Virus record (IMG/VR): IMGVR_UViG_3300005521_000001
Source: an uncultured virus (IMG/VR IMGVR_UViG_3300005521_000001)
Lineage: Duplodnaviria; Heunggongvirae; Uroviricota; Caudoviricetes
Length of the DNA: 64,000 nucleotides
Reading direction: 5' to 3' (one strand)
Part shown: piece by piece, positions 883 through 62,965 of the stretch
How positions within the stretch are numbered: the first letter of the stretch is position 1
Layout: each line of letters starts with the position of its first letter
Translations under genes and position numbers: made by a program
The notes under the pieces: model-generated
What the model was told of the DNA's origin: nothing
Database searches by the model: none
What the model saw: the letters and a program-made list of their open reading frames with translations, nothing else

Positions 883-2781
883 TCATGGGTATTTGATGAT
901 TCTTGAATTATTCCCCACCGGCATTCCCCTATCCCATGTTAAGTCAGTATCAATTACCAAAAAGACTCGACAAGTGACTGGATTGTTTGGGTCAATATCC
1001 TCAATAACTGCACTATGCTCCCCTGCGTCTATGAATCTGACTTTATTACTCATTGCCGTATAGTCGTTTGAGGACAATATCATTACCCCATTAAACTCAA
1101 CGGGCATTGGTCCGAGTCCACCACTACCACTCTCCAACCAAGCCATATTACTGACAAAAATATGTGGAATAACGAAGTTATTAGTGTTATCAAAATAATA
1201 TACCACTGAATCAGTTCCACCGGTGAGATTTCCTCTCCTATCATCCTCTCCAATTTGACCATTAAAAATAAATTCCCTTCCACAGTTCTCTGCCACCGTT
1301 CCTACATGACTAATTTCAAAAATTTGACCTGACCCTGTTTGTGTATGTTCACAAGTAAATACATCAACATTCTCATTAATTGTTGCACCACTTGAAACAC
1401 CTAACTCAATTGTGTCGCCAGTCTGTAATAATCTAAATGGAGAAAAATGATGCGTGGTTGGGTTTTGGTCATGCTTAAACAATTGGCGAATATCTGTTCC
1501 TCCACCACCACCACCTGTCGCACTTAGGGTTGAACCTGCCAAAGATAGCCCCGTTCCAATTGTCAATGCGCCCAAATCACCGTTAGCGTCAGCATGAACT
1601 ACTGCACTTGTTGTAGCCGATTGACGGATTGTTCCTGTCACATCTAATTCAGTTTGGGGATTAGTGTTAGCGATACCAATTGCCGTAGCATCCTGTGCGC
1701 CTTTGATAGTTATTCTTTCTGGTTGCCCTGTCGTAGCATCATCAGTCTTAACCCAAAAATCACCGTTGTAAGCATAGACACCATCTCCACCATCAAATTG
1801 TATTGGTTTGTTAAAGTAAAAATAACTTTTATCTGTTAATACATGAGCAAAACTTGCGTTTTGAGAACCTATTTTAACATAACCTGTATTACTCCCTATA
1901 TGCAATAAAGGCTCATTTGCACCACTGACAGACGCTTGTAATTTTATTTTTGCAGTAGCAGGGGCAGTTATTGAGCCAGTAGCGGTTTCATCAATAACAA
2001 TAGATTTCCCCGTGTCCATTGTCACATCACCTGCTAAATCAAGTGTTGCTTCTCCTTCAACTGCGGAGATAGCCATAGCGTCAGTATAAGAAGTTCCACC
2101 ACTTACTGTTTGCCAAGAGCAAGTGCCGTCGCCATCTTCTCTTAAAAATTTAGAACCTCCCTGTTCACCTGTTGATTTCAATTCTGTTCCTTCAAGGTCG
2201 CAGTTAATAACTACTTTATCACCGGCAGTTCCAACTGTGTTTATGCCTGTGCCTCCTTCGACCTTAGCAGTATTACCATCAGCAATAGTTTGATTAGTGC
2301 CTGTATCACCTGCAAGAATAAAAGAAACCATTGGTGTTGTTGATAGCGACAAATCAATAGTTCCACTTAGGGTCACTGGATTAGTGCCTGTCAAGGTTAT
2401 GCTTCCATCTGTTGAAGAAAGTCCTATACTTGTGACTGTTCCACTACCACCACTACCCCCTTGTTGATTGACCCATTGAGTATTGTAGTCCTGTGCGTTT
2501 ATTTTTGCCAATACTTGATTTGTTGAGCCACCTGCCGGAACACCGACCCCATCAGAACCTTTTGCCCCTGTTGCCCCTATTGCCCCTATTGCGCCTGTCA
2601 AAGTGGTAGTGGTAGTGGTTGTTGGTATTTCTTCAAAGACACCTGCTATCTTGGCCTTTCTAACCAATTCAATATATGTATCTTTGGCATGGGTTTTAAC
2701 CCCTGCTTGATTCAACCGTGACCTCAATTGGTCAGGAGCATTATTAGGATTGCCGGAGTTCGCATTAGCCACTTGTCTCAT
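883..2781 (-). CDS. tail fibre / virion adhesin with a short collagen-like segment
   Basis: GAIGAIGATGAKG repeats, VPAGGSTNQVLAK..DYNTQW and IGIANTNPQTELDVTG motifs typical of phage fibres; rich in G/T/S. Confidence 0.7.
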   Translation of the reverse strand: MRQVANANSGNPNNAPDQLRSRLNQAGVKTHAKDTYIELVRKAKIAGVFEEIPTTTTTTTLTGAIGAIGATGAKGSDGVGVPAGGSTNQVLAKINAQDYNTQWVNQQGGSGGSGTVTSIGLSSTDGSITLTGTNPVTLSGTIDLSLSTTPMVSFILAGDTGTNQTIADGNTAKVEGGTGINTVGTAGDKVVINCDLEGTELKSTGEQGGSKFLREDGDGTCSWQTVSGGTSYTDAMAISAVEGEATLDLAGDVTMDTGKSIVIDETATGSITAPATAKIKLQASVSGANEPLLHIGSNTGYVKIGSQNASFAHVLTDKSYFYFNKPIQFDGGDGVYAYNGDFWVKTDDATTGQPERITIKGAQDATAIGIANTNPQTELDVTGTIRQSATTSAVVHADANGDLGALTIGTGLSLAGSTLSATGGGGGGTDIRQLFKHDQNPTTHHFSPFRLLQTGDTIELGVSSGATINENVDVFTCEHTQTGSGQIFEISHVGTVAENCGREFIFNGQIGEDDRRGNLTGGTDSVVYYFDNTNNFVIPHIFVSNMAWLESGSGGLGPMPVEFNGVMILSSNDYTAMSNKVRFIDAGEHSAVIEDIDPNNPVTCRVFLVIDTDLTWDRGMPVGNNSRIIKYP

Positions 2782-17113: not shown

Positions 17114-17923
17114 TTATACCTCTCTTATCGCTTCGGTTGCTATAACCCTTGTGTTGTGACCATCAATTGATTCTAAAACGGCAAATTGCCCCTTTTCATG
17201 CTTACTAATCTTCACCTGTGTGGTAGTAGTGCCAAATGTGTTTAAAATTGTTTTCAATGATTCTGTGAAAGCGACTTTGAACGGTTCTCCGTGAATCTCC
17301 ATCTCAAGTGGAGTCCAAGACCTGATTTGTTTCCCTGACCAATGACCTGACCGTGCTTCACCCTTCTTATCGAAGGTAATAACCACATACGGGGCTTTGG
17401 CAGTTATTTGCTCATGAACTGCTTTTCTCAATTCCTGAATAGAAACAATTGCCGAATGCGTAGCAGGTTCATTCTCAAACATTGGAAAAAGAATATCGCC
17501 TTTCTCGTTTTTTGGCATGAGCCACCTATCGGGAATGATAAGACAATCCTCTTCCTCTGTCGGCATGACCTCTGCACCACCGTTGTTTCTGGTTGATATT
17601 GATATTGGGTGTGATGCCGATGTTGTAATTCTAATCATCTCCCCTCTCGACTTGGCTCTTACAATGTCGCCTAATTCTTTTGGGTCAGTCAATAATACAC
17701 ATGGCTCTTTTACTTTCAAGCCACTGACCGGCCACCTTGTCAGGATTGTTTGTATCGTCTTTGAAACATTTAACCCACCAATACTGATACCCTCGTTTTC
17801 AAAGAGTATTTTTACTGGCACTGGGGGCGAGTCCATGCAAACTGCTGATAGCAAATTGGCAAACTCCCCGCCATTAACTTGTATCATACAAGTCCGACTT
17901 ACTTTGGAGTTAGGTGTCAGCAT
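17114..17923 (-). CDS. pcn: DNA polymerase sliding clamp (PCNA-like)
   Basis: About 270 aa. N-terminal GEFANLLSAV..VKILFENEGISIGGLNVSKT resembles PCNA, and RFC subunits are co-encoded. Start is 19 nt from the motif at 17942. Confidence 0.75.
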   Translation of the reverse strand: MLTPNSKVSRTCMIQVNGGEFANLLSAVCMDSPPVPVKILFENEGISIGGLNVSKTIQTILTRWPVSGLKVKEPCVLLTDPKELGDIVRAKSRGEMIRITTSASHPISISTRNNGGAEVMPTEEEDCLIIPDRWLMPKNEKGDILFPMFENEPATHSAIVSIQELRKAVHEQITAKAPYVVITFDKKGEARSGHWSGKQIRSWTPLEMEIHGEPFKVAFTESLKTILNTFGTTTTQVKISKHEKGQFAVLESIDGHNTRVIATEAIREV

Positions 17924-17959
17924 ACCCTCTAACGGGTAGCCCACCTATTTTAAGGAATA

Positions 17960-18238
17960 GAAAGGGGGCTTTAGGACAGAAACCCCCTCATCTTCATGAG
18001 AGGCACGGGTCGCTAACCCCGTTCCAACAGACCGGTCAATATCCGACAGTCCTTTACCCTGTGAAGGGTGTTGCGTTTCTCCCCCCCTTGCCTCTTGGTG
18101 GCTCAAGTAAAGCCCCCTGCAAAGGATTGAGAAGCGACACCGGAACAATCACAACCTCACGCCCCTACTATGGCAATACCGCTTCCGGTTGCTTCAAGGA
18201 TTGATTTTGGTCATCGGGTGTTCCGTGTTGTCGCCTCT
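17960..18238 (-). ncRNA. candidate structured ncRNA A (about 280 nt)
   Basis: Has its own class I promoter (18257) with no ATG. Stems include 18229-18238/18130-18139 (10 bp starting at +1) and 18108-18118/17963-17973 (11 bp, perfect). Confidence 0.65.
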
Positions 18239-18256
18239 GTTCTATCGTAGGGGCAA

Positions 18257-18280
18257 CCCCTATATAAACCTGTCGCCTAT
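18257..18280 (-). promoter_or_regulatory. class I promoter driving ncRNA A
   Basis: Minus strand ATAGGCGACAGG-TTTATATAGGGG, with the same flanks as the promoters at 30399 and 51601. Confidence 0.75.
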
Positions 18281-18648
18281 TATTCATCATAAGCGTCAGG
18301 ATGAGCAAGCCATGTCTTTTGAGGATATTTTGTTCGACCATCAATACTGGCAACTCTTACAGTTCCGGCGCAGTAAAACAAATGTGGCTTCTTGGCTAAG
18401 TGATTCGATAACCTGTTCATCTCAAATGGTTGCTTGGGTAGTGTAAGAATTTCACCTGTTGTCATCGGTGTTCCATCGGGAAAGGTTGCACCTTCTTTTA
18501 TCATACATTTCCAAAGACGCTTGACATTTCGACCATCAGATTTTCCTAACCTGCCTTTCTTTCGTGTGCCATACTTGGAAGAAGGAACGGTGTCATAATC
18601 AGTCTTTTTCTTGTCTTTCTTCATCTCCTGACTCCTTTGGTTTAACAA
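18280..18648 (-). CDS. basic hypothetical protein, possibly nucleic-acid binding
   Basis: K/R-rich 122-aa ORF downstream of the nuclease; the true start is probably ATG 18624. Confidence 0.65.
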   Translation of the reverse strand: MLNQRSQEMKKDKKKTDYDTVPSSKYGTRKKGRLGKSDGRNVKRLWKCMIKEGATFPDGTPMTTGEILTLPKQPFEMNRLSNHLAKKPHLFYCAGTVRVASIDGRTKYPQKTWLAHPDAYDE

Positions 18649-19828
18649 TTAACATTCTTTGGGGTTTATGTATTTGAGTTCTCTTAATAGCGTCGGCCAC
18701 TTCATCAGGAAGAATAGGCAACACTCTATCAACTGCGGCATTAGATAACGATACCATAGTTCCGAATACTGCCGGTGGCACTAACCTCTGCACTTCGGCA
18801 GGGATATATGACTTTCTCGTTTGTTCTCGCCATTCAACCGACCATTTATCGGTATCTAACTTACAGTCGGACACCGGCATTTGATAATCAAAAATTTCAG
18901 TTTTGATATGATTGTCAATAGCCTTCTTTCTCTTTTCAAGCATTGCTTTGCTTGCTTTTATTGTAGCAAGTTCATCCAACAAATCATCGGTGTCGCCACC
19001 TAATGTCGGTGTCAGCATATCCCATGCTCCATTTTGCATCAAGTCCTGTGCTTTAGGGCATAAGTCAGCATAACTACACCATTGACAACCTTTGCCTATC
19101 TGTGCCGGAACTTTGGTCCAATCGGAAGAATCTATTGAAAGTATATTTTCATATTGACCATGAAGCCAATCCTTGAAAGTCTCAAGTCTTTCATCCGACC
19201 AAACGGTAGTCACCGTTCCATGTCTCATCAAATCAAAGGTGAATTTCAAAGGTCTATCCGGCCACATTTCTCTTGCTACACATAGATAAATTGCCGCTTG
19301 TATGCTATGGTCGGCTTCACCTTGAGTTATGTCTAATCTCTGTGTTTTGTAGTCAATTAATTCAACTGTTCCGTCAGGGTGTTCGATGACTAAATCAACA
19401 AACCCCAAAACTGGTGTTCCTGTTCTCTGTAATATGTATGGAGCATTATGTTGCCCAAATTGCATCTCGACATAAAGCACTCTAACAGGGTGTTTTCCTC
19501 GACGGTCAAACCATCTCTTGAGCATTTTTTTGCCGTCTTCAAAGAATGATAAATCAACTTCTCGCTTGGCGGATATTTCATTGTATAGTTTCATCAACCT
19601 ACCAAAACTGGGCTTTGGTGTGTCTCCGTTCTCGTCAGGTCTTCGCCATTCTTCAAAAGCATCGTGGACATTATTACCCATCCTACCTGCTTGTGAACTA
19701 TCCCTATGATTTCCAATATCCTTTAGTGCCTGTGCGTCAGCAGTAGGAGTTTCATAATGAAAACAATACTTTAAAGAACATTCTTGAGCAGTTTTTAATC
19801 GGCTTGCTGAAATATAAGGCACTTTCAT
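18599..19828 (-). CDS. PD-(D/E)xK exonuclease, Cas4/AddB-like, with Fe-S cysteines
   Basis: ISASRL..C, G..VH, GFVDLV..LIDYKT, Q..IY and CQWCSYADLCP motifs. Confidence 0.88.
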   Translation of the reverse strand: MKVPYISASRLKTAQECSLKYCFHYETPTADAQALKDIGNHRDSSQAGRMGNNVHDAFEEWRRPDENGDTPKPSFGRLMKLYNEISAKREVDLSFFEDGKKMLKRWFDRRGKHPVRVLYVEMQFGQHNAPYILQRTGTPVLGFVDLVIEHPDGTVELIDYKTQRLDITQGEADHSIQAAIYLCVAREMWPDRPLKFTFDLMRHGTVTTVWSDERLETFKDWLHGQYENILSIDSSDWTKVPAQIGKGCQWCSYADLCPKAQDLMQNGAWDMLTPTLGGDTDDLLDELATIKASKAMLEKRKKAIDNHIKTEIFDYQMPVSDCKLDTDKWSVEWREQTRKSYIPAEVQRLVPPAVFGTMVSLSNAAVDRVLPILPDEVADAIKRTQIHKPQRMLIVKPKESGDEERQEKD

Positions 19829-24542: not shown

Positions 24543-24594
24543 ATCTGTCAAGGTGAATACCCACCATTATGAATTAATCCTTCAAACCACTCTC

Positions 24595-24690
24595 TTTAGT
24601 TTATACATATATGTTATCTGTTATGTGTGTGTGTTAGTATGTGTTGTAGTATGAATAATTAGGATAACCCCCTAAAGGGGGTTAAAGAAT
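24595..24690. other. candidate replication origin (low-complexity AT/TG tract plus a 9-bp inverted repeat)
   Basis: TATGTG/TAGTATG repeats at 24600-24655 and TAACCCCCT-AA-AGGGGGTTA at 24665-24684, upstream of the helicase. Confidence 0.35.
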
Positions 24691-24787
24691 CAGACAATTG
24701 CAGGGTTTGAACCGTTAAGGTCTTTCAAAACTATATGCAAGAAAAACACTTGGCGACAAAAACACCAATTAATTGTAATCATTAATT

Positions 24788-25076
24788 GAAAAAGTGTAAG
24801 GGGGCAAATTGCCTAATCGGGTATGCCCCCCTACGGGGCGAAGGCCGTTAAGGTAGGTCAGTCTGCAAGCCAGTTTAGTGATGCAACAACTGCGCCATTC
24901 TTGGTCAAGCAAATTCAATTGGCGGCCAACCCTTCGTTTGCTTACCTACCCATGCTATGTCATATCCCGCCCTGCTCGGCATCACCCGTTAGGTCAGTAT
25001 GGCTTTCAAGTCTTGCACGGCCACCCAAACTTATACCAGTCCGAGTGTTCTTCGGTGGGGGGTTTGACTCCCCTAC
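24788..25076 (-). ncRNA. candidate structured, pseudoknotted ncRNA B (about 285 nt)
   Basis: Class I promoter at 25095 with no ATG. The predicted +1 G (25076) opens an imperfect terminal stem with 24796-24808, followed by UUUUU. Several nested helices and one crossing helix. Confidence 0.65.
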
Positions 25077-25094
25077 AAACTACCCTATCAGTCG

Positions 25095-25118
25095 CCCCTA
25101 TATAAAGGTGTCGCCTAT
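25095..25118 (-). promoter_or_regulatory. class I promoter driving ncRNA B
   Basis: Minus strand ATAGGCGACACC-TTTATATAGGGG. Confidence 0.75.
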
Positions 25119-30120: not shown

Positions 30121-30366
30121 TTAATTTGTTAGTTTGTAGCATAGTCTTGCTACGACTCTATGGGTGCTTATTTTTCTTCCAGTTTCAGTAGTTATATTTG
30201 CATTTTCAATATCGGATTGAAGGTAAAGAACCTCTCTTAATTCTCTATCCGCATCCTCTGTTGCTACATCTTCCGCAGTAGTATTGATAATCCAATTTAA
30301 GTGGTCTTGCTTGTGTCCTACATATTCGTCGTATTCATATCTTACATCAACATCGTCTTGGTTCAT
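30121..30366 (-). CDS. hypothetical protein
   Basis: Promoter at 30399 and a short leader with GAGGGG before ATG 30366. Confidence 0.65.
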   Translation of the reverse strand: MNQDDVDVRYEYDEYVGHKQDHLNWIINTTAEDVATEDADRELREVLYLQSDIENANITTETGRKISTHRVVARLCYKLTN

Positions 30367-30424
30367 TTTTATTCCCCTCTGTTTAATCGTAGGGGTCACA
30401 CCTATATAAAGGTATCTTATATTG

Positions 30425-30739
30425 AAAGGTGCAGGGTGACTTACCTAAGTTTCAGTCGGGTTCACCCTGCGGGGTTTAATACTGATAGGCGCAATCATCC
30501 GACCCTGCCACCCTTCGGTGCTATCCTTTAACAAGTCGGGCTTCCGACAACATGGGCTTACTAACTGCCATGCGCCGAGTGAGGGAATTGGCTACCAACC
30601 ATTTCACCTACGCCATAGTTCTCTTCACTCCAACAACACCACGCCGGTGCGTCTGGCAACCCGCCTTGCGGCCAAGTAGGGATTTCTCCTACCTACGGGG
30701 AACTCTATCTTCTTCGGCGTCAGGTTGGTCGCCCGACAC
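30425..30739 (-). ncRNA. candidate structured ncRNA C (about 315 nt, GNRA tetraloops)
   Basis: Class I-like promoter at 30758 with no ATG. 5' stem 30731-30737/30535-30541, GAAA and GCAA tetraloop hairpins, and a 9-bp 3' stem 30462-30470/30431-30439. Confidence 0.65.
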
Positions 30740-30757
30740 AAATAGTCCTATCAGCCA

Positions 30758-30770
30758 CTACTATATAAAG
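30758..30770 (-). promoter_or_regulatory. class I-like promoter driving ncRNA C
   Basis: Minus strand CTTTATATAGTAG, the same variant as at 39706, which precedes a protein gene. Confidence 0.7.
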
Positions 30771-30863
30771 ATATTGTTAATATATTCAATTCTTTATAAA
30801 CTGTCGAAGGTTTTGATTTGATACCTTTGTTTCTTTTGGAGGTTATTGACCACGATAGCCCTA

Positions 30864-39416: not shown

Positions 39417-39457
39417 GGTTAGCCATTAGGACTGTCCTATATAAAGATACCGCCTAT

Positions 39458-39688
39458 TTAATATCCCCATGACATATTTCTTAGTGCAACTGCAACATGC
39501 CCATTCCACATTGATGTGTTTGCTACAACATAATTATTGGCTTTGGTTGCACTTGTTCCGCATGAAATCATAGCGTTAATGGCATTTGTTTTAGCGTGCC
39601 ATCTGTTGCCGTAAGGTGTTGTCATTGTGTTTATGTATGCGTGAAACCCTGCAATTCGGGCTTTATGGCTTGGTCTTGTTCCGTTCAT
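39458..39688 (-). CDS. small hypothetical protein
   Basis: Class I-like motif at 39706. Confidence 0.65.
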   Translation of the reverse strand: MNGTRPSHKARIAGFHAYINTMTTPYGNRWHAKTNAINAMISCGTSATKANNYVVANTSMWNGHVAVALRNMSWGY

Positions 39689-39729
39689 GATTAGCGATTA
39701 GGCCACTACTATATAATTATATCGCCTAT

Positions 39730-45146: not shown

Positions 45147-46748
45147 TCAGAGTCCTCTGCTCTCAATCCTCTCGGATAGCCAAGAGCCGAGTCCGACCAT
45201 ACCTTTGCTTACATTTGGTTGTGGGTCAAACTTGGTCACGCCAGAGTTCTTTTCAGTAGGAGTTATGTCAGCCGATAGGCTTTTTCTGTCGGCTTTAGGA
45301 GCGGGTATATCAAATCCCACTTCCGCCATTTTTTCTGTTAGTCTCTTGCTAACTTCCGCTTCAATTTTCGCTTCGGTTTCAGCAATTTCCATCTTTTCAT
45401 TTAAAGAAGTAATAATTTCTTCTTTTTCAGTAAGTGTAGTTTTTAGTGATTCTGTTTCATCGAGTTTTTCAGTCAGGGCGTTGATTGAATTTTGCATACT
45501 TAGAATAGTTTTTACGACTTCTTCTAATACCGATTCATCGGACATTGTTTTTTCTTCAACAACTTCTTCTTCAACAACTTCTTCTTCCTCGACAAGTTCT
45601 TCCTCAAGAACTTCTTCCTCGACTTCTTCTTCTTCGGTTGCTTCCTCAAGAACTTCCTCTTCCTCGGTTGCTTCTTCCTCGGTTGCTTCTTCCTCAACAA
45701 CTTCTTCTTCCTCAACAACTTCCTCTTCAACCTCTTCGGTTGCTTCTTCAACAAGTTCTTCGGTTGCTTCCTCGACCACTTCTTCCTCAAGAACCTCTTC
45801 GGTCTTTAGGGTAGTAGGTTCTTCGGTAGGAACAACAACATCTTCGGCTTTGATTTCAACATCTTCGATAATATCATCGGAGTTCTTCTCATCAGACATG
45901 TCACTTTCCTTCCCTATATGGGTATTAACTGTATCGGACTCGATAACTCCTTTAAGTAATTCTTTTAATGATTCAATTTCTTGGCGCAGTTCTTCCATTC
46001 CGTCTTCTGGAACTGGCATTTCTTCGGTTTTCTCAAACTCAACAATATATGCATCTTCCGTTTCTTCAATTGCCAAAATGTGTTTTTGTTCTCCTTTACA
46101 AGAACAATCACTGTGGGAATTTGCACCTGTGTAAGAAACCAAAGATTTCTCCACATCAAAAAGGGCATTGGGTGAAGCGGGAATATCAACAACGCTTGTT
46201 TCTATCCATTCAATATCAGTGAATCGAACATAACAAGCATCATCATCTTTGTCATTAGGACATTCCTTTACTGCCGCTTTTGCTATGAAACCAATAGAGA
46301 AAGACCTAAGCATTCCTTTTCGTATCTTTCTAACAATGTCTTGTTCTCCACCGTCTATTCTTGCTCGACCCATGACTGTTTTAATTTTCCTGTCATCATC
46401 TTCATAGACTCCCATTTCAACATCTTCCATAACTCCAATTACCCCGTAGTCTTTTCTATGGTTGTATAGAATAACTGGGTTTTTTGCATAAGAGTTCCAT
46501 GAATCTAAAATTGCTTTTGGTTCGACCATTTCTTTGTGTCGGTCAAGCATTGCTTCATCTCCGACATAAACCGGACCATAGACTACTACATCATTGTCGG
46601 CTTTTTGATATTCGTCACCATCAAAGGACTTATCAATTTTGAAAGGAACTATCATTCGGTATTCAAAAACCGCTTCTTCCTGTTTGCCTTTAATTGCATC
46701 GAACAAATTGTTATCATCAAGGAAAACTGCATTGTTAAAATCAACCAT
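45147..46748 (-). CDS. prohead protease fused to an acidic scaffold domain
   Basis: DRHKEMV, NPVILYNH, LRSFSIGF and ETSVVDIPASPNALF, followed by E-rich repeats and a coiled coil. Confidence 0.9.
   Translation of the reverse strand: MVDFNNAVFLDDNNLFDAIKGKQEEAVFEYRMIVPFKIDKSFDGDEYQKADNDVVVYGPVYVGDEAMLDRHKEMVEPKAILDSWNSYAKNPVILYNHRKDYGVIGVMEDVEMGVYEDDDRKIKTVMGRARIDGGEQDIVRKIRKGMLRSFSIGFIAKAAVKECPNDKDDDACYVRFTDIEWIETSVVDIPASPNALFDVEKSLVSYTGANSHSDCSCKGEQKHILAIEETEDAYIVEFEKTEEMPVPEDGMEELRQEIESLKELLKGVIESDTVNTHIGKESDMSDEKNSDDIIEDVEIKAEDVVVPTEEPTTLKTEEVLEEEVVEEATEELVEEATEEVEEEVVEEEEVVEEEATEEEATEEEEVLEEATEEEEVEEEVLEEELVEEEEVVEEEVVEEKTMSDESVLEEVVKTILSMQNSINALTEKLDETESLKTTLTEKEEIITSLNEKMEIAETEAKIEAEVSKRLTEKMAEVGFDIPAPKADRKSLSADITPTEKNSGVTKFDPQPNVSKGMVGLGSWLSERIESRGL
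45545..45800 (-). repeat. imperfect tandem repeats encoding EEATE/EEEVV/EEVL units
   Basis: Repeated CTTCTTCCTC / CGGTTGCTTC units within the scaffold. Confidence 0.8.
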
Positions 46749-47164: not shown

Positions 47165-47575
47165 CTATCGCATTCTCAATGGGAAAATTTGTCTAAATTT
47201 CTCATTGAATACTTCCTGTGGAACTGATTTCATTTTTTCTTTAGCCATTCTAACTGCGGGTCTAAGATATGGTTTTGGTGGCATTGGAGCATAAGATATT
47301 CTTCCAAACTCCACTACTGACGCATAGCCAACCCTTGAATTTCCAAATCTGACGGTGTAGCCTTTTCTTGATGGTGTTTTAACTGCCCTACCCGAAGCCT
47401 TCAATTTCCCTGTATCAACTGGAACTAATTGTTTCGCCTTTCTTAGAATAAAATTAGCAATCCTCTTAGATAATTCCTTGTTATACGATTCGGGCAAAGT
47501 GGCCGCCAACATTTGGAATTTAAGTCCTATTCTTGAAAATACTGCATGATTAACAGAGATGTTTGACATACTCAT
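47165..47575 (-). CDS. HK97 gp10-like neck/tail-completion protein
   Basis: AKQLVPVDTGKLKAS..YASVVEFG..MPPKPYLRPA. Confidence 0.88.
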   Translation of the reverse strand: MSMSNISVNHAVFSRIGLKFQMLAATLPESYNKELSKRIANFILRKAKQLVPVDTGKLKASGRAVKTPSRKGYTVRFGNSRVGYASVVEFGRISYAPMPPKPYLRPAVRMAKEKMKSVPQEVFNEKFRQIFPLRMR

Positions 47576-48951
47576 TCCTCTGTGTTATCTTCCTCTTCCT
47601 CTTGGACTTCCTCTTCCTCTTGTGATTGGTTGATTGTTAATTTAGGTGATAGGAAGAACGGGTCATCGGCTTCATTGAAGTCTAATGACTCAAGACCAAG
47701 CATTCGTCTTGATTCGTTTATACTAATTACCCCTTCTTGTCTTAAAGAAGCAATCGCCTGACCCTGCGCTCTTACCACTTCCGCCATTATTTTTTGCTTA
47801 GATGGTCTAATCGAATTGAAAGCAAACCTATAATCTTTAATACCCAAAAGTGGAAGTATCTTGTGATTGACCATACACTCAACTCTATATTGATATGCTT
47901 CAACAACATCATACCATGAATCTAATTGTGTTTCAGGATTTGACATTTTACCTGTTTGAACCCAACCCAGTTTCATTGGTGGTATTCCGAATACTGCACA
48001 TATCTCTTCTCTGTAATAATAAAGTAAATCTAAATGCTGACCATCTTTTATCGAGTCCAATAATCTAACAGTTTGAAACCCAGTTCCACCATTTACTGCT
48101 ACAAGACCAAAAGGGGATTTACCCCCGCTTAATTGTTGCTCAAGCATGGCAAGCATGGATTTCATTTCAGCATTAGAAACATCTCCAACATTAAGTATAG
48201 TCTTTGGTAATGTTCCAGTGAATGATTCGTTTATGTAATTGGATAGGTTTAGATGACCTGCTATTGTATTCATCAATGGAACAAGTGGTGAAGAACCATA
48301 TCCCCTACCTGCTTTGTATTTTGATATATGAATAACTTTACTCGATGTGAACCTACGGGTTTTTCGCTCTATGGTTTGTATGAACGCCATAGCAGGTGGT
48401 GCAGGTGTCCTATTGGCGGGAATAATCTTCATTGTTTCAGCAGGTATATTCCAAATCGAGACAAGATTTCCTCCGAAGTTCCAGTCCTCCCCATTCTTAC
48501 TTGACTTATCTTTAGTTCCATCTAATTCTAAATATGCATCTCCAAATAATGCCAAGTCAAAGATTAATGATTCAAGCCATTCGTCGCCGTTGTCGTCAGG
48601 GTTTGGTGTTTTGAAAAACTCTCTAAGTGTATTTAATTCAACAGAATTTCCTTGTTCAATACCTTCTTGTAAATCAAAACGATAGCCATTTCCTAAACAA
48701 TCATCAACAGTTCTCCTTAGAATAGCATTTACTACCTCATTTTGTAAACTTATTTGTTTAATTAATGTATAATCTATATTGGGTGTAGCACCACTTGTAG
48801 CATAACTGTGAGCGGAGGTTTGCATACCAATTTTTGTTAAAGATGCCAAATGTTTGTAATCCATCTCATCTTTATTTTCCATGTTAATGACCGTTGGTTC
48901 GATTTTATTTCTCTTGAATCTATCAAGAAAACGCCTACGCCTCTCCGCCAT
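47572..48951 (-). CDS. portal protein
   Basis: DLALFGDAYLE, VIHI..GYGSSPL, EEICAVFGIPPMKLG and GVISINESRRMLGL. Confidence 0.93.
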   Translation of the reverse strand: MAERRRRFLDRFKRNKIEPTVINMENKDEMDYKHLASLTKIGMQTSAHSYATSGATPNIDYTLIKQISLQNEVVNAILRRTVDDCLGNGYRFDLQEGIEQGNSVELNTLREFFKTPNPDDNGDEWLESLIFDLALFGDAYLELDGTKDKSSKNGEDWNFGGNLVSIWNIPAETMKIIPANRTPAPPAMAFIQTIERKTRRFTSSKVIHISKYKAGRGYGSSPLVPLMNTIAGHLNLSNYINESFTGTLPKTILNVGDVSNAEMKSMLAMLEQQLSGGKSPFGLVAVNGGTGFQTVRLLDSIKDGQHLDLLYYYREEICAVFGIPPMKLGWVQTGKMSNPETQLDSWYDVVEAYQYRVECMVNHKILPLLGIKDYRFAFNSIRPSKQKIMAEVVRAQGQAIASLRQEGVISINESRRMLGLESLDFNEADDPFFLSPKLTINQSQEEEEVQEEEEDNTEE

Positions 48952-49783: not shown

Positions 49784-51310
49784 CTAAGCACCAAAAGTCC
49801 TCATTTCCATAACTCCGCCACCATCGTAAACTTGTCTTGCCAGTCTTGCATACAGTAAAGCGTGGAATGCGTGGTCATCACTGTCTCGACCATACTTCGT
49901 TAGAGTTTGTCCTCTAACTGGTTTGGTATTTTTCTCATCCTTTTCAGCCGTCGAAGTCAATGAACACCATTGATGAATCACCCAGTCAAGCGACTCATCT
50001 TCATAGGGTAGTGATATTTCACCACGCTTAATTTGTTCTAATGTTTCTTCAACATAAGTGGTTCTATCAACTACGCACATATAGATTAGATTCCTGTTGT
50101 TATCCCTGCGCTTGTATTCGTATGGTGTCATTGGCCTTGATGAATAATAACAAGACCTAACCCTTTCTCCAAATTCCTCTTGAAGTTCCTTGACCTGCCT
50201 TGCACCATAACCAATATCAGCAACAACTTGAACACAGTTATAATCTGTAATGAGTTTCTTTAATTGAAGAACTTCATCACCCTCGCCTGATTCTCTTGCA
50301 TCCAGTTCAAGTGCATTTATTATATCCCCCTTATCGGTCATAATAACCACTGTTGTTGTAGCCCCCCAGTCAATCCCCATGTAAGTCTCCTGTGGTGGAG
50401 AAACCGCTCTAATTATTCCTCGTTTTCTATCAAGACATGGTAGCACTTCATCAAATGTTAGAGGTTTAGAAGTTCCAGCCCAAAATTCACCCATTACCTC
50501 ATTTGCATATCGTCTTGGTGTGTATGTTTCTTTCTTTTGTAATATGTCGGCTTTGCTAATATCGGGGTGCATAGGTTGTGATATATGATAACCGATAATG
50601 TTAGCCTTACTCTCTGTGTGAACCCATCTTTGGGCTTCTTCATCCCATTCGCCTTGTGTTGATTTCTCCCACATTTTCCAAAATTCCGAGCCTTGTTCAC
50701 GGGCAGTTCCAGACACAACTACCCATTTGTATTCCGATTGAGCCAACATCTCAACTAACATAGGCAACACATCGGAGTCGGAGTCTTGGTATTCATCAAT
50801 ACAACATAAATCGGCTTCAATACCTAACAGAGCATGAGCATCACCCCAGTTAGAATAAGCGTATAAGTGATTCAAAGATAATGCCCCAACATCAAATGTT
50901 TGGTGGCTGACGCTTGACTTCAATCTTGATTTCAATAAACAACCCCCGTTAATACTGCTCATCATAGCACCGTTGAACCTCTCTTCAACAAACCTTGTCA
51001 CTTGAGGTTGTCTTGGTGCAGTATAGACCGCATTAAAATAAGGTATATTCAACAAAGCGTAAAGTAATAGGTTGCATATCGTTTCAGTTTTCTCAACCTT
51101 CCTACTGCATTTTAGCATTATCATTTTGGTAGTGTCAGATTTTTCCATAGCCCCGAAGTGCCTATAAATCTCAATAAGATATGGCCGCTCATCAAGCATG
51201 AACGGTTTGCCGTCAATGGTGCGGAAGTATTGCGACCATCTATCGGGGTAAAGTGCAACGGCTTTCGCCTGTTCCGCATTGAGCCGACTGGCGTTAGCAG
51301 GTTCGCCCAT
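49784..51310 (-). CDS. terL: terminase large subunit
   Basis: Variant Walker A SRKVEKT, Walker B CIDE, motif III VSGTA, nuclease GIDWG and DDHAFHALLY. Start 51310 is set by the class II promoter. Confidence 0.9.
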   Translation of the reverse strand: MGEPANASRLNAEQAKAVALYPDRWSQYFRTIDGKPFMLDERPYLIEIYRHFGAMEKSDTTKMIMLKCSRKVEKTETICNLLLYALLNIPYFNAVYTAPRQPQVTRFVEERFNGAMMSSINGGCLLKSRLKSSVSHQTFDVGALSLNHLYAYSNWGDAHALLGIEADLCCIDEYQDSDSDVLPMLVEMLAQSEYKWVVVSGTAREQGSEFWKMWEKSTQGEWDEEAQRWVHTESKANIIGYHISQPMHPDISKADILQKKETYTPRRYANEVMGEFWAGTSKPLTFDEVLPCLDRKRGIIRAVSPPQETYMGIDWGATTTVVIMTDKGDIINALELDARESGEGDEVLQLKKLITDYNCVQVVADIGYGARQVKELQEEFGERVRSCYYSSRPMTPYEYKRRDNNRNLIYMCVVDRTTYVEETLEQIKRGEISLPYEDESLDWVIHQWCSLTSTAEKDEKNTKPVRGQTLTKYGRDSDDHAFHALLYARLARQVYDGGGVMEMRTFGA

Positions 51311-51360
51311 AACCCCGCTTGGGGCGTTAGGGTTTAGAACCGTTGTGGTGGTTTTAATTT

Positions 51361-51582
51361 CTAACCTTGATAAGTGAAAGGGCAACCGTAGCATTTGTAA
51401 AGACCTGTCACGCCTTCGTATTTATTAAACATGATTTTGCCGTCGCATCCGACGCATTCACACTTAGATGGTTCACCTGTGATGTTGCACGAAAAGAAAG
51501 TGCATTCATCGTCGTCACAATTGCATAGGTGCAATTTAAATCCATTATATTCTGTTTCATCGTAGGTTTCCGGTTCGGGCAT
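51361..51582 (-). CDS. Cys-rich small protein
   Basis: 9 Cys in 73 aa; class I motif at 51601. Confidence 0.7.
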   Translation of the reverse strand: MPEPETYDETEYNGFKLHLCNCDDDECTFFSCNITGEPSKCECVGCDGKIMFNKYEGVTGLYKCYGCPFTYQG

Positions 51583-58082: not shown

Positions 58083-58238
58083 CTTAATTCCTTCCTTATT
58101 TTTCTTGGGTTATTTTGTCCTATACACCACACCTATATAACAGTTATTATAATGTTATGTTTCATGTTGTCTGTCTGTCTCCTGTTTTTGGTGCGGGTAT
58201 AGATAACCCTATACACCACTCCTATATAAGGATATTCC

Positions 58239-61552: not shown

Positions 61553-61721
61553 CCTTGTCACCCCAATGGTTGTCGCTGACAATCTTATATTTGCCAAAGA
61601 CTCTATCCCAAAAAGACCGTTGAATCCAACAATCAATTCCTAAGTGGTGTTCAATTTCTCGCTTCATGTTATTCGCTTCAACCCTTGTTGAAACACTTGT
61701 CAGTATTACTTTATCATTCAT
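61545..61721 (-). CDS. 58-aa microprotein
   Basis: Translated by hand as MNDKVILTSVSTRVEANNMKRE..; ATGA-coupled to rfcS. Confidence 0.55.
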   Translation of the reverse strand: MNDKVILTSVSTRVEANNMKREIEHHLGIDCWIQRSFWDRVFGKYKIVSDNHWGDKDE

Positions 61722-62719
61722 TCAATCATCACCTTTCGCCACCAACATTTTACTGCCAGTATATCATCCTGTGAAACTGATGCGTAGTATAATCCCTCGC
61801 CAAGCGATTTCAAAATATCTTCCTTAAGCGCACGGGGCATTGGGTCATCTTCGTCTGTTGTCAGGTTGTAAATTGAATGTAGGATTTCTCCACCGCTCAT
61901 ACCTCGACCTGCTAAATCATCAATAGACCTATCTAACTCCCTACTTAGTTCGTGAACCTTATCTTTATTCTTATGACATTGAATAATTTTTCCAAGCATA
62001 TATTTTGCTTGTATTGGATTTAGTGTTGAAATATATTCTTCAACATCTTCCGGCTTGACCTCTGTTGGAATACGGGTCAAAGTCCAAAGTATATTGAGAG
62101 CCTTTCTCATAGAACCACTTGACGCTTCACTAATCATTAGTAATGCTTTGTGGCCGATATTGAAGCCCAATGAATCAAGGTAGTTTGTCATGTCCTCTTT
62201 ACTAATTGGTTTGAATCTGGTATTGGAAAAAGCGCATCGGTCAAGCACCGGACTAATTATTCTGTGCGGGTAATTGCCCGATAAAATAAATCGGGTGTTC
62301 TTGTATTTCTCCATGATGCGTCTTAGAGCCGACTGTGCTTCCTGTGTCAGGTTGTCGCATTCATCTAAGAATATCACATTGAACGGTATCGGCATTTGCA
62401 CACCATCAACCTCAAATGAACCTAAAATTCCTTTCTTGGCGAAGCCTTTGACCTTTTCTCTAATGACACCAATAGACCTCTCATCGGAGGCATTGAGTTC
62501 AATAAAATTCCTATCCCAGTCATCACCGAATGAATCTTTCAGGAATGCAATAGCCGTTGCAGTTTTACCTGTGCCTTGTTTGCCAAAGAAACCCATGTGA
62601 GGTATCGTATTACCTTTACCTTCTCTAATAACATTGACCATAGCCTTGAGGTATTTTATGATGTGGTCTTGACCCACTATATCATCAAGAGTCTGTGGTC
62701 GAAGTTTTTCAGTCAGCAT
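61718..62719 (-). CDS. rfcS: replication factor C small subunit (clamp loader)
   Basis: EKLRPQTLDDIVGQ, GKQGTGKT, ELNASDER, LDECDNLT..AQSALRR and GSMRKALN. Confidence 0.95.
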   Translation of the reverse strand: MLTEKLRPQTLDDIVGQDHIIKYLKAMVNVIREGKGNTIPHMGFFGKQGTGKTATAIAFLKDSFGDDWDRNFIELNASDERSIGVIREKVKGFAKKGILGSFEVDGVQMPIPFNVIFLDECDNLTQEAQSALRRIMEKYKNTRFILSGNYPHRIISPVLDRCAFSNTRFKPISKEDMTNYLDSLGFNIGHKALLMISEASSGSMRKALNILWTLTRIPTEVKPEDVEEYISTLNPIQAKYMLGKIIQCHKNKDKVHELSRELDRSIDDLAGRGMSGGEILHSIYNLTTDEDDPMPRALKEDILKSLGEGLYYASVSQDDILAVKCWWRKVMIE

Positions 62720-62900
62720 TCTTAGTCCTCATCTTTTCTTCTTCATACTTGTCCATACCCACTCTCAAACTATGTTCATAGTCCTCATTACATGGAGGGC
62801 ATAAATCACATTCAAGGTGATGACTTGGGCTAAGAACAAACTTAACATTACAATTTCGGCACTTTTTCTTAACAACAAACAATCTTATCTTCTCGCTCAT
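62709..62900 (-). CDS. small zinc-finger protein
   Basis: CRNC..CPPC; ATG 62900 is 19 nt from the motif at 62919. Confidence 0.65.
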   Translation of the reverse strand: MSEKIRLFVVKKKCRNCNVKFVLSPSHHLECDLCPPCNEDYEHSLRVGMDKYEEEKMRTKNAD

Positions 62901-62965
62901 GTCTAATGCTACGAAGCACACCTATATAAGGATATTCCCTATAAGTCCTTGATGGGTTATGAATT

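Follow-up and report, generated by a model that had tools for sequence, protein, structure and literature searches.

What lies between the nuclease operon and the sliding-clamp gene of an uncultured tailed virus, where no protein appears to be encoded? The virus is known from IMG/VR record IMGVR_UViG_3300005521_000001, of which a stretch of 64,000 nt (the window) was analyzed. All long open reading frames (ORFs) of the window are on the minus strand and its GC content is 37-45% per kb. Between orf122, which ends at 18280, and the next gene there are 335 nt that hold no ORF and have a GC content of 51-58%; on the minus strand this gap opens with TTTATATA. An earlier note made from the sequence alone (the original prediction) had placed a two-domain non-coding RNA (ncRNA) at 17960-18238, between the nuclease operon and the gene for PCNA, on the minus strand. 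Our analysis supports this core reading, and we consider it about 85% likely that the gap encodes a real, transcribed, structured ncRNA. We give about even odds to the further reading that it is an independent accessory ncRNA gene, equipped with its own promoter and acting in trans.

The folding signal of the region is strong on one strand. All the sequence elements named in the original prediction were found at their positions on the minus strand. The 279 nt from 18238 to 17960 fold on that strand with -112.3 kcal/mol, compared with a mean of -93.6 kcal/mol for shuffled sequences (z-score -3.49), and 0 of 200 dinucleotide shuffles were as good. For the plus strand the z-score is -1.33, with 18 of 200 shuffles folding as well. 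The minimum free energy (MFE) structure of the minus strand reproduces the predicted two-domain layout. Four distinct variants, those of the window and of three related contigs (L006, L007, and L008), all show the same bias, with sense z-scores of -3.1 to -3.8 (0 of 60 shuffles as good) and antisense z-scores of -0.06 to -2.1. Four G·U pairs are invariant across the variants; the opposite strand would have A·C mismatches at these places. The window has 17 gaps of more than 120 nt without a gene; among these, the RNA gap has the highest GC content (0.52), the largest strand asymmetry, and the lowest z-score (-4.76, mononucleotide shuffles).

The fold of the second domain was assessed in a 209-column alignment (A3) of the linker and domain 2 from the four variants. 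Helices P2 to P7 (Table 1) are kept in every variant. Across the core helices 96.6-98.6% of the cells are paired, versus 38-57% in slid-partner controls, and the observed covariation, with five to seven pairs changed on both sides, was equaled by 0-2 of 500 shuffles. P2 has three two-sided pair changes: L007 has C-G in place of A-U, and L008 has A-U in place of G-C and G-C in place of A-U. In P4 there are two, and a 25-nt insertion lengthens this helix in L008. P3, P5, P6, and P7 are invariant and therefore uninformative on covariation. Related viruses preserve the helices, and compensatory changes are seen in P2, P4, and a further helix, P1, described below. Constraint is high as well: 153 positions are invariant in the 183-nt alignment of linker and domain 2, including several multi-nucleotide loops and junctions, and the neighboring proteins of the same viruses differ by 7-11%.

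Parts of domain 2 differ from what had been proposed. The hairpins ACCCU-UCAC-AGGGU and CUCAU-GAAG-AUGAG are both present. The pairing of AGAAAC with GUUUCU, put forward as a possible crossing pair, is a real covarying helix (P2); it is nested and crosses no other helix. The proposed AGAGGCA/UGCCUCU helix finds no support, being outside the MFE structure, broken in two of the four variants (L007 and L008), and unconserved. It competes with the invariant P7 hairpin CCUCUCAU/AUGAGGGG.

The predicted pairings of domain 1 are present in the window. AGAGGCGACA (18238-18229) pairs with UGUCGCUUCU (18139-18130) over 10 bp including one G·U, and CGGAACA (18225-18219) pairs with UGUUCCG (18147-18141). 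An ACCG-GAAG-CGGU hairpin and the first copy of the 9-mer UCAAUCCUU lie inside. L006 shares this form of the domain and keeps the inner hairpin by a G-C to C-G swap (CCG/CGG to CCC/GGG). The domains 1 of L007 (108 nt, z-score -3.23) and L008 (75 nt, z-score -4.08) are unrelated to it in sequence. In each of the three forms the 5' terminus is paired with the stretch immediately ahead of the conserved linker, with z-scores of -3.2 to -4.1; in L007 the 5' sequence has changed to AGAGCG and its partner has changed in step to CGCUCU. The two copies of UCAAUCCUU in which a protein-binding or target-pairing element had been suspected both exist, the first being confined to the form of domain 1 found in the window and L006 (L007 has CAAUCCU). 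Such a 9-mer repeat is expected about 0.14 times by chance within 279 nt, so the repeat alone is weak evidence.

The region that joins the two domains has two alternative pairings. In model A the strand GGGGGCUU (18117-18110) pairs distally with AAGCCCCC (17970-17963), forming P1. In model B it pairs locally with GAGCCACC (18104-18097; nearby stretch GAGCCNCC), and the linker is paired as well. The linker is conserved in all four variants save for a U to C change in L007, by which a U·G of the model B helix becomes C-G. The 11-bp helix AGGGGGCUUUA (18118-18108)/UAAAGCCCCCU (17973-17963), proposed as a perfect closure of domain 2, is perfect in the window; it is so only there, and it has a conserved competitor. 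RNAalifold picks model B. In constrained folds the window favors model A by 3.6 kcal/mol, and L006, L007, and L008 favor model B by 4.2, 4.9, and 3.5 kcal/mol, respectively. P1 has two two-sided changes (G-C to A-U in L008, and U-A against A-U in the window and L006) with 5 of 44 cells unpaired; the helices of model B have only one-sided, pair-preserving changes. Both folds may form. A pseudoknot of linker UCCUUU with AAAGGA (18055-18050) was rejected because the U to C change of L007 breaks it but improves the competing linker helix.

An archaeal-type promoter precedes the RNA. The motif TTATATAG-N19-ACAGAGGCGA occurs three times in the window, always on the minus strand, versus 0.04 expected. 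Where read, the cassettes of relatives are each headed by TTATATAG and a 21-nt spacer with a palindrome, followed by AGAGGCGA... or directly by ATG. The 21-nt spacing holds in 16 of the 20 promoter copies listed across slot variants; GAGGCGA comes two bases earlier in L021, L027, L028, and L031, and the ATG one base later in L024/L029. The arms of the spacer palindrome, judged by eye and uncounted, vary among cassettes yet remain complementary (GGGGTTGCCCC, TAGTGGTTACTA, GGGGGAACCCC). In cassettes L018, L019, L025 (first), and L026 (first) the ATG of the ORF is exactly 21 nt past TTATATAG, the position of A18238 in the window. This fits leaderless archaeal transcripts and supports the +1 at 18238 of the original prediction; we infer A18238 to be the 5' end of the RNA. 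The other two window copies of the motif (30373-30409 and 62893-62929, with one and three mismatches) precede a 92-aa ORF (30121-30399) and the RFC-like gene (61718-62719).

The locus was compared among relatives that had been identified by their nuclease and PCNA genes. The gene order p306, nuclease, orf122, slot, PCNA, p67, p135 is kept, and the slot spans 105 to 1770 nt. Only five of 36 PCNA-linked IMG/VR contigs with a visible slot encode the RNA, two identical to the window and one each of the L006, L007, and L008 types. Of the remaining slots, 27 have orphan ORFs of 40-181 aa, except that L090 has a DNA methylase, and four (L085, L086, L089, and L091) have just a spacer of 105-126 nt. 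Pfam searches with 15 slot proteins of relatives and two neighboring window ORFs matched only the methylase in L090. The slots of the window, L007, and L008 consist of the RNA unit only. In L006 the RNA unit comes first, and a second promoter with its 40-aa ORF unit comes next; L003 has the ORF unit only. The breakpoint between units is at the TATA box TTATATAG. The slot is hyperplastic, and the RNA is thus just one of its many self-contained accessory units. No protein gene co-inserted with the RNA was seen in the slot comparison. L003 and L004, with a PCNA 89% identical, have PCNA without the RNA.

Wider searches returned the same few copies. The RNA stretch has no blastn match in 50,697 phage records. 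Four exact-pattern scans of viral contigs (7, 6, 8, and 5 stretches) found real matches only in the same five contigs; matches in L035, L037, L044, L095, L097, and L100 were rejected as chance pattern matches within unrelated sequence. A pattern scan of metagenomes gave five stretches, three identical to L006 or L007 and two by chance. Covariance model R1 found no more copies in 18 other sources or 33 further PCNA-linked loci (440 kb of related loci), and the two loci from a PCNA-profile scan of genome contigs are both without the RNA. The slot is outside the cover of the nearest virus record, G001. We take as presumed host order that of the metagenome-assembled genome (MAG) holding a distant relative of the PCNA locus (G002; the MAG is titled 'Methanobacteriota archaeon'). 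Under strict filters and an E cutoff of 0.001, R1 matched none of 151 genomes of this order. Scanning the GTDB species genomes for a 32-nt core pattern gave no exact match.

The region is non-coding. Indels of -1, +3, and +1 in L006 and +25 in L008 break the reading frame, and each variant has stop codons in all three sense frames. No similarity of the stretch to any slot protein was found, and the slot of the window has no ATG-started ORF longer than 8 aa. No described RNA family matches it. The 4227 models of Rfam 15, which include riboswitches, ribozymes, SRP, RNase P, prohead RNA (pRNA), manA, IMES, GOLLD, ROOL, and C/D and H/ACA small RNAs, gave 0 matches over the window at gathering score and 0 at E up to 1. 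On an 801-nt slice (17700-18500) at E up to 10 the only match was CRISPR-DR15, outside the RNA (17713-17767, plus strand, 15.7 bits versus 36). ARAGORN found 0 tRNA or transfer-messenger RNA genes in the window. A tRNA-like RNA was also rejected on shape: domain 2 has a four-way junction (P2, P3, P6, and P7) with arms unlike those of a tRNA, namely an 8-bp P7 capped by a 4-nt loop, and a branched P3.

The target pairing raised in the original prediction found no backing, as complementarity to mRNAs and genomes gave no target above chance in the window, the related loci, or the 151 genomes. Outside its own locus, the RNA has antisense matches in the window of at most 12 nt (E 0.89). When the three domain 1 forms were searched in the window and 594 kb of related loci, only matches of 13-15 nt were obtained, with a best E of 0.03. 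The complement of the linker has two exact matches among those listed for the 151 host-order genomes, and its one-mismatch matches are scattered over both strands; at up to one mismatch it is about three times as frequent as a reversed-pattern control, at no conserved site. In L008, a part of domain 1 (contig positions 2766-2780) is perfectly complementary over 15 nt to the mRNA of a 632-aa gene of the window (883-2781; match at window 1450-1464), a match that may be chance (E 0.03 after three queries).

There is a hint that the RNA is more abundant than the flanking mRNAs. One metatranscriptome run (X1), the only RNA run with part of the stretch, has a 194-nt contig over 17983-18177 with a word depth of 46.5. 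Five contigs over PCNA, orf122, and the nuclease in this run have depths of 2.7-8.8, so the RNA contig is about 5-17 times deeper. The contigs come from a relative about 87-92% identical, a fifth variant, and the cover is blank, and thus uninformative, at for example 18184-18405 and 17814-17961. The region is therefore present in an RNA library at greater depth than its neighbors, as read from contigs, a weak sign of transcription. Mapped by hand to A3, the contig differs from the window at columns 24, 34, 37, 52, 54, and 55, where it has the states of other variants, and at unpaired column 59, in the P4 loop, and by an 8-nt shortening of the P5 tip. None of these differences disrupts a helix with both strands visible in the contig.

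At the other end, the conservation common to the four variants stops at 17953-17973, and in L006 the second promoter adjoins directly. The tail UUCUAUUCCU is a possible weak termination region. No run of at least five U is found between the RNA and the PCNA start region.

Table 1. Positions of the RNA, its parts, and the flanking features in the window.
Feature	Position	Strand	Description
PD-(D/E)XK / Cas4-like exonuclease	18599-19828	-	PF12705, E 6.9e-23; phrog_69 exonuclease, E 5.9e-25; 409 aa; upstream of the RNA
orf122	18280-18648	-	Relatives align from residue 21 on; true start probably internal
Archaeal-type promoter	18260-18279	-	TATA box TTATATAG at 18267-18260, GGCGACAGG upstream; begins right after the orf122 stop codon
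TATA-to-start spacer	18239-18259	-	21 nt; holds palindrome GGGGTTGCCCC (18259-18249)
Putative transcription start	A18238	-	A after C; matches the ATG position of sister cassettes
Domain 1	18130-18238	-	109-nt irregular hairpin; 5' end AGAGGCGACA paired with UGUCGCUUCU; MFE -42.8, z-score -3.87
Linker CAAUCCUUUGC	18119-18129	-	Has the second UCAAUCCUU copy; single-stranded in model A; in model B CCUUUGC pairs with GCAAGGG (18091-18085)
Switch strand GGGGGCUU	18097-18118	-	Strand at 18117-18110; local partner (model B) or distal partner (model A)
Domain 2 core	17974-18084	-	P2 enclosing three branches: P3, P6, and P7
P2	18084-18075 with 17983-17974	-	AGAAAC/GUUUCU of the original prediction, extended to 10 bp
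P3	18073-18070 with 18028-18025	-	Carries P4 and P5
P4	18069-18056	-	Branch on P3
P5	18052-18029	-	Branch on P3
P6	18022-18005	-	Branch inside P2
P7	18003-17984	-	GAAG loop; 8 bp
P1 3' strand UAAAGCCCCCU and tail UUCUAUUCCU	17953-17973	-	Tail pyrimidine-rich (17962-17953); 3' limit of the RNA-specific sequence
PCNA translation start region	17921-17952	-	AAUAGGUGGG; small hairpin UACCC/GGGUA; AUG 17923-17921; outside the RNA cassette
PCNA-like sliding clamp gene	17114-17923	-	269 aa counted from ATG; downstream of the RNA

In the reading we favor, that of an accessory gene for a trans-acting RNA, transcription would start at A18238, 21 nt past the TATA box, and yield an RNA of about 285 nt (18238-17953) with its 5' end buried in the closing stem of the variable domain 1. 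The 3' two-thirds would fold into the conserved multi-helix domain P2-P7. The RNA would build up above the levels of the flanking mRNAs and act in trans as a protein-binding scaffold or as a decoy for a host or viral factor, with domain 2 as the functional core and domain 1 as an exchangeable end-protecting or specificity module. We prefer this reading because the unit is dispensable in close relatives and is separated from PCNA by a promoter in L006, and because its structure exceeds what a stabilizing hairpin needs and the RNA seems to outnumber the PCNA message.

Several points weigh against it. No partner, target, or host homologue was found, so trans action is suggested by context only. 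The expression hint comes from the assembled contigs of one run; contig depth is a poor measure and DNA carry-over is possible. The covariation statistics are thin, with only four full variants that are all close kin in domain 2. Both ends of the RNA, a discrete 3' end included, are read from sequence, and without an oligo-U terminator the RNA may be just the 5' part of a PCNA operon transcript.

This last point bears on the best-placed rival, which we regard as possible and on the whole unlikely: a cis-acting leader of the PCNA operon mRNA, riboswitch-like or protein-responsive, whose two pairings would gate read-through or translation of PCNA and the genes downstream. The RNA is separated from the PCNA AUG by 30 nt that hold no oligo-U terminator, and co-transcription with PCNA is evident for the protein cassettes of this slot. 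Both partners of GGGGGCUU are conserved, with folds within 3.5-4.9 kcal/mol of each other in all four variants, P1 with its two compensatory changes and the competing helices with consistent one-sided ones. An abundant short leader is also what an attenuator in its 'off' state would be expected to leave. However, L003, L004, and 29 more distant relatives express PCNA without such a leader, and in L006 a full second promoter and the 40-aa ORF separate the RNA from PCNA. Joint folds of the RNA and the PCNA start show no pairing of a freed 3' tail with the Shine-Dalgarno-like site, and no Rfam riboswitch matches.

A more specific proposal, to which we give little weight, is a riboregulator or decoy that acts in trans, is modular and bistable, and serves in the conflict between marine archaeal viruses and their hosts. 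Domain 2 would bind a host or viral protein, and the switch between the P1-closed and local-hairpin folds would alter its activity. The swappable domain 1, which has three unrelated forms on RNAs otherwise about 90% identical, would serve to tune specificity or to escape a host countermeasure.

It is improbable that the RNA is a passive stabilizer or processing element without a function of its own, that is, a 5' cap-like module against 5'-3' exonucleases or a processing mark. The 5' end is paired in three unrelated forms of domain 1, which seems constrained in only that respect. A simple hairpin would suffice for such a role, though, and the 153 invariant positions of 183 are far more constraint than end protection requires.

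Two rivals appear very improbable. The sequence adjoins replication genes (nuclease and PCNA) and cassettes come and go at the flanking promoter repeats, as might be expected of a DNA-level element such as a replication origin, packaging site, or recombination hotspot; however, the folding signal and the G·U pairs are strand-specific, an essential origin or pac site would not be swapped for unrelated ORFs in sister genomes, the cumulative GC skew is monotonic across the window, and the RNA-library depth is above that of the neighbors. A small protein gene or decayed remnant, such as the TTG frame at 18148-17945 that is open over domain 2 in the window (67 codons) and L007 (96 codons), is hardly credible given the frame-shifting indels, the lack of a longer ATG-started ORF or of any likeness to slot proteins noted above, the compensatory nature of the helix substitutions, and the expectation that GC-rich sequence in an AT-rich genome is stop-free by chance.

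The RNA can be set beside several known systems. Virus-borne orphan ncRNAs in promoter cassettes are an already known kind. In the promoter-early stem-loop (PeSL) cassettes of T4-type phages a repeated promoter module heads small accessory units. Similarly, a repeated promoter here heads each small unit of a hyperplastic region, with three copies in the window, and units are gained, lost, and swapped among sister genomes at this promoter (L003, L006, window, L007, and L008). The palindrome between TATA box and start, whose arms differ yet are complementary by eye, may correspond to the PeSL stem-loop. Unlike PeSL, the promoter is archaeal (a TATA box with a leaderless or short-leader start) and the cargo is a 285-nt structured RNA rather than a small ORF; PeSL describes the vehicle only and says nothing on the RNA. 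Like the manA and wcaG motifs of cyanophages (Rfam RF01745 and relatives), the RNA is a GC-rich, multi-helix accessory RNA of an ocean virus; unlike them, it has no Rfam match, another architecture, and a much narrower distribution (five contigs).

The phi29 pRNA, found in Bacillus podoviruses, measures 174 nt, has two domains, and is made from its own promoter. One of its domains is essential and conserved in shape and the other dispensable or variable; it is encoded at the genome end and functions in packaging through intermolecular loop-loop pairing. The RNA described here is likewise virus-encoded, structured, and two-domain, with its own promoter and one conserved and one variable domain. 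It differs in being about 31 kb from the terminase and portal genes (49784-51394 and 47572-48951), in being missing from 31 of the 36 related contigs with a visible slot, including close packaging-competent relatives, and in having no match to Rfam pRNA models. Decoy RNAs of eukaryotic DNA viruses, such as adenovirus virus-associated (VA) RNA and the Epstein-Barr virus EBERs, are abundant. The RNA may work like these, as a small, structured, end-protected, non-essential accessory that is under its own promoter and seemingly more abundant than neighboring mRNAs. It belongs to another domain of life with another polymerase and has no sequence or structural homology to them, and any protein partner is purely hypothetical.

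A literature search for a structured RNA of a marine archaeal virus turned up none, and a search of main magrovirus papers for a few terms gave no occurrence of 'non-coding', 'ncRNA', 'intergenic', 'promoter', or 'PCNA'. The main interest of the RNA is its swappable 5' domain and possible switch. Within about 330 nt it has a promoter, a putative start, covarying helices, a swappable domain, and a hint of high expression. As this case shows, orphan proteins are not all that these uncultured viruses encode in their accessory slots; RNA genes occur there too. At minimum, covariance-model libraries can gain a new RNA family whose secondary structure is defined. If it binds a host factor, it would be a handle on the infection biology of a host lineage that is still uncultivable, and the decoy reading, if true, would make it an archaeal-virus counterpart to the decoy RNAs of eukaryotic DNA viruses.

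The flanking genes agree with the original prediction, Pfam and PHROG matching the nuclease upstream and the PCNA fold appearing downstream. The true start of orf122 probably lies inside the called ORF. The clamp protein has no match in Pfam or PHROG by sequence. Its AlphaFold2 model (mean predicted local distance difference test score, pLDDT, 92.2; predicted template-modeling score, pTM, 0.87) has PCNAs as its top Foldseek matches in the PDB (E about 1e-12, template-modeling score 0.63-0.72). These matches bear out the PCNA label, and by its modeled fold the gene downstream of the RNA is PCNA. The coding conservation of PCNA (MLTPNSKV) begins at AUG 17923; the ORF listing had set the start 21 nt early, at a GTG. 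A Shine-Dalgarno-like AGGUGG at 17946-17941, within AAUAGGUGGG, is kept in relatives regardless of slot content. The arms of the start hairpin (14-17 nt) covary among relatives L003-L031, as UACCC/GGGUA, ACCCC/GGGGU, and UAGGCUU/AAGCCUA. This start region resembles a hairpin-bridged ribosome-binding site.

Elsewhere the window encodes a family B DNA polymerase, an RFC-like AAA+ protein, a helicase, a large terminase, a portal, an HK97-type capsid protein, a tape-measure protein, and a Mom-like protein. The virus is a tailed virus of archaeal type. Among phage records on deposit, tailed viruses of haloarchaea give the best full-length matches to its polymerase, with 22-24% identity.

Some minor observations concern the slots of relatives and the remainder of the window. 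The motif SPENISCDGEAS is common to three otherwise different slot proteins (L070:3431-3700, L088:3490-3927, and L090:2525-3007) and seems to be an orphan domain that turns up repeatedly in the accessory slot. A contig of 55,503 nt from the virus group (L051, PBLX01000067.1) is filed in a MAG titled 'Legionellales bacterium'; it equals L072/L020 (IMGVR_UViG_2786546787_000011) in size and slot sequence, so that binning has probably placed a viral contig in a bacterial MAG. The 10-mer GAAGCAACCG occurs five times (window 45635-45770) within a 533-aa ORF (45147-46748), probably as a short peptide repeat. Four gaps of the window have weaker minus-strand folding by mononucleotide shuffles: 24552-25117 (z-score -2.3, GC 0.44), 30400-30863 (-2.4, GC 0.47), 39417-39729 (-2.8, GC 0.40), and 58083-58238 (-3.4, GC 0.35). 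None of the four matches an Rfam model at E up to 1. More RNAs or regulatory elements may lie in them.

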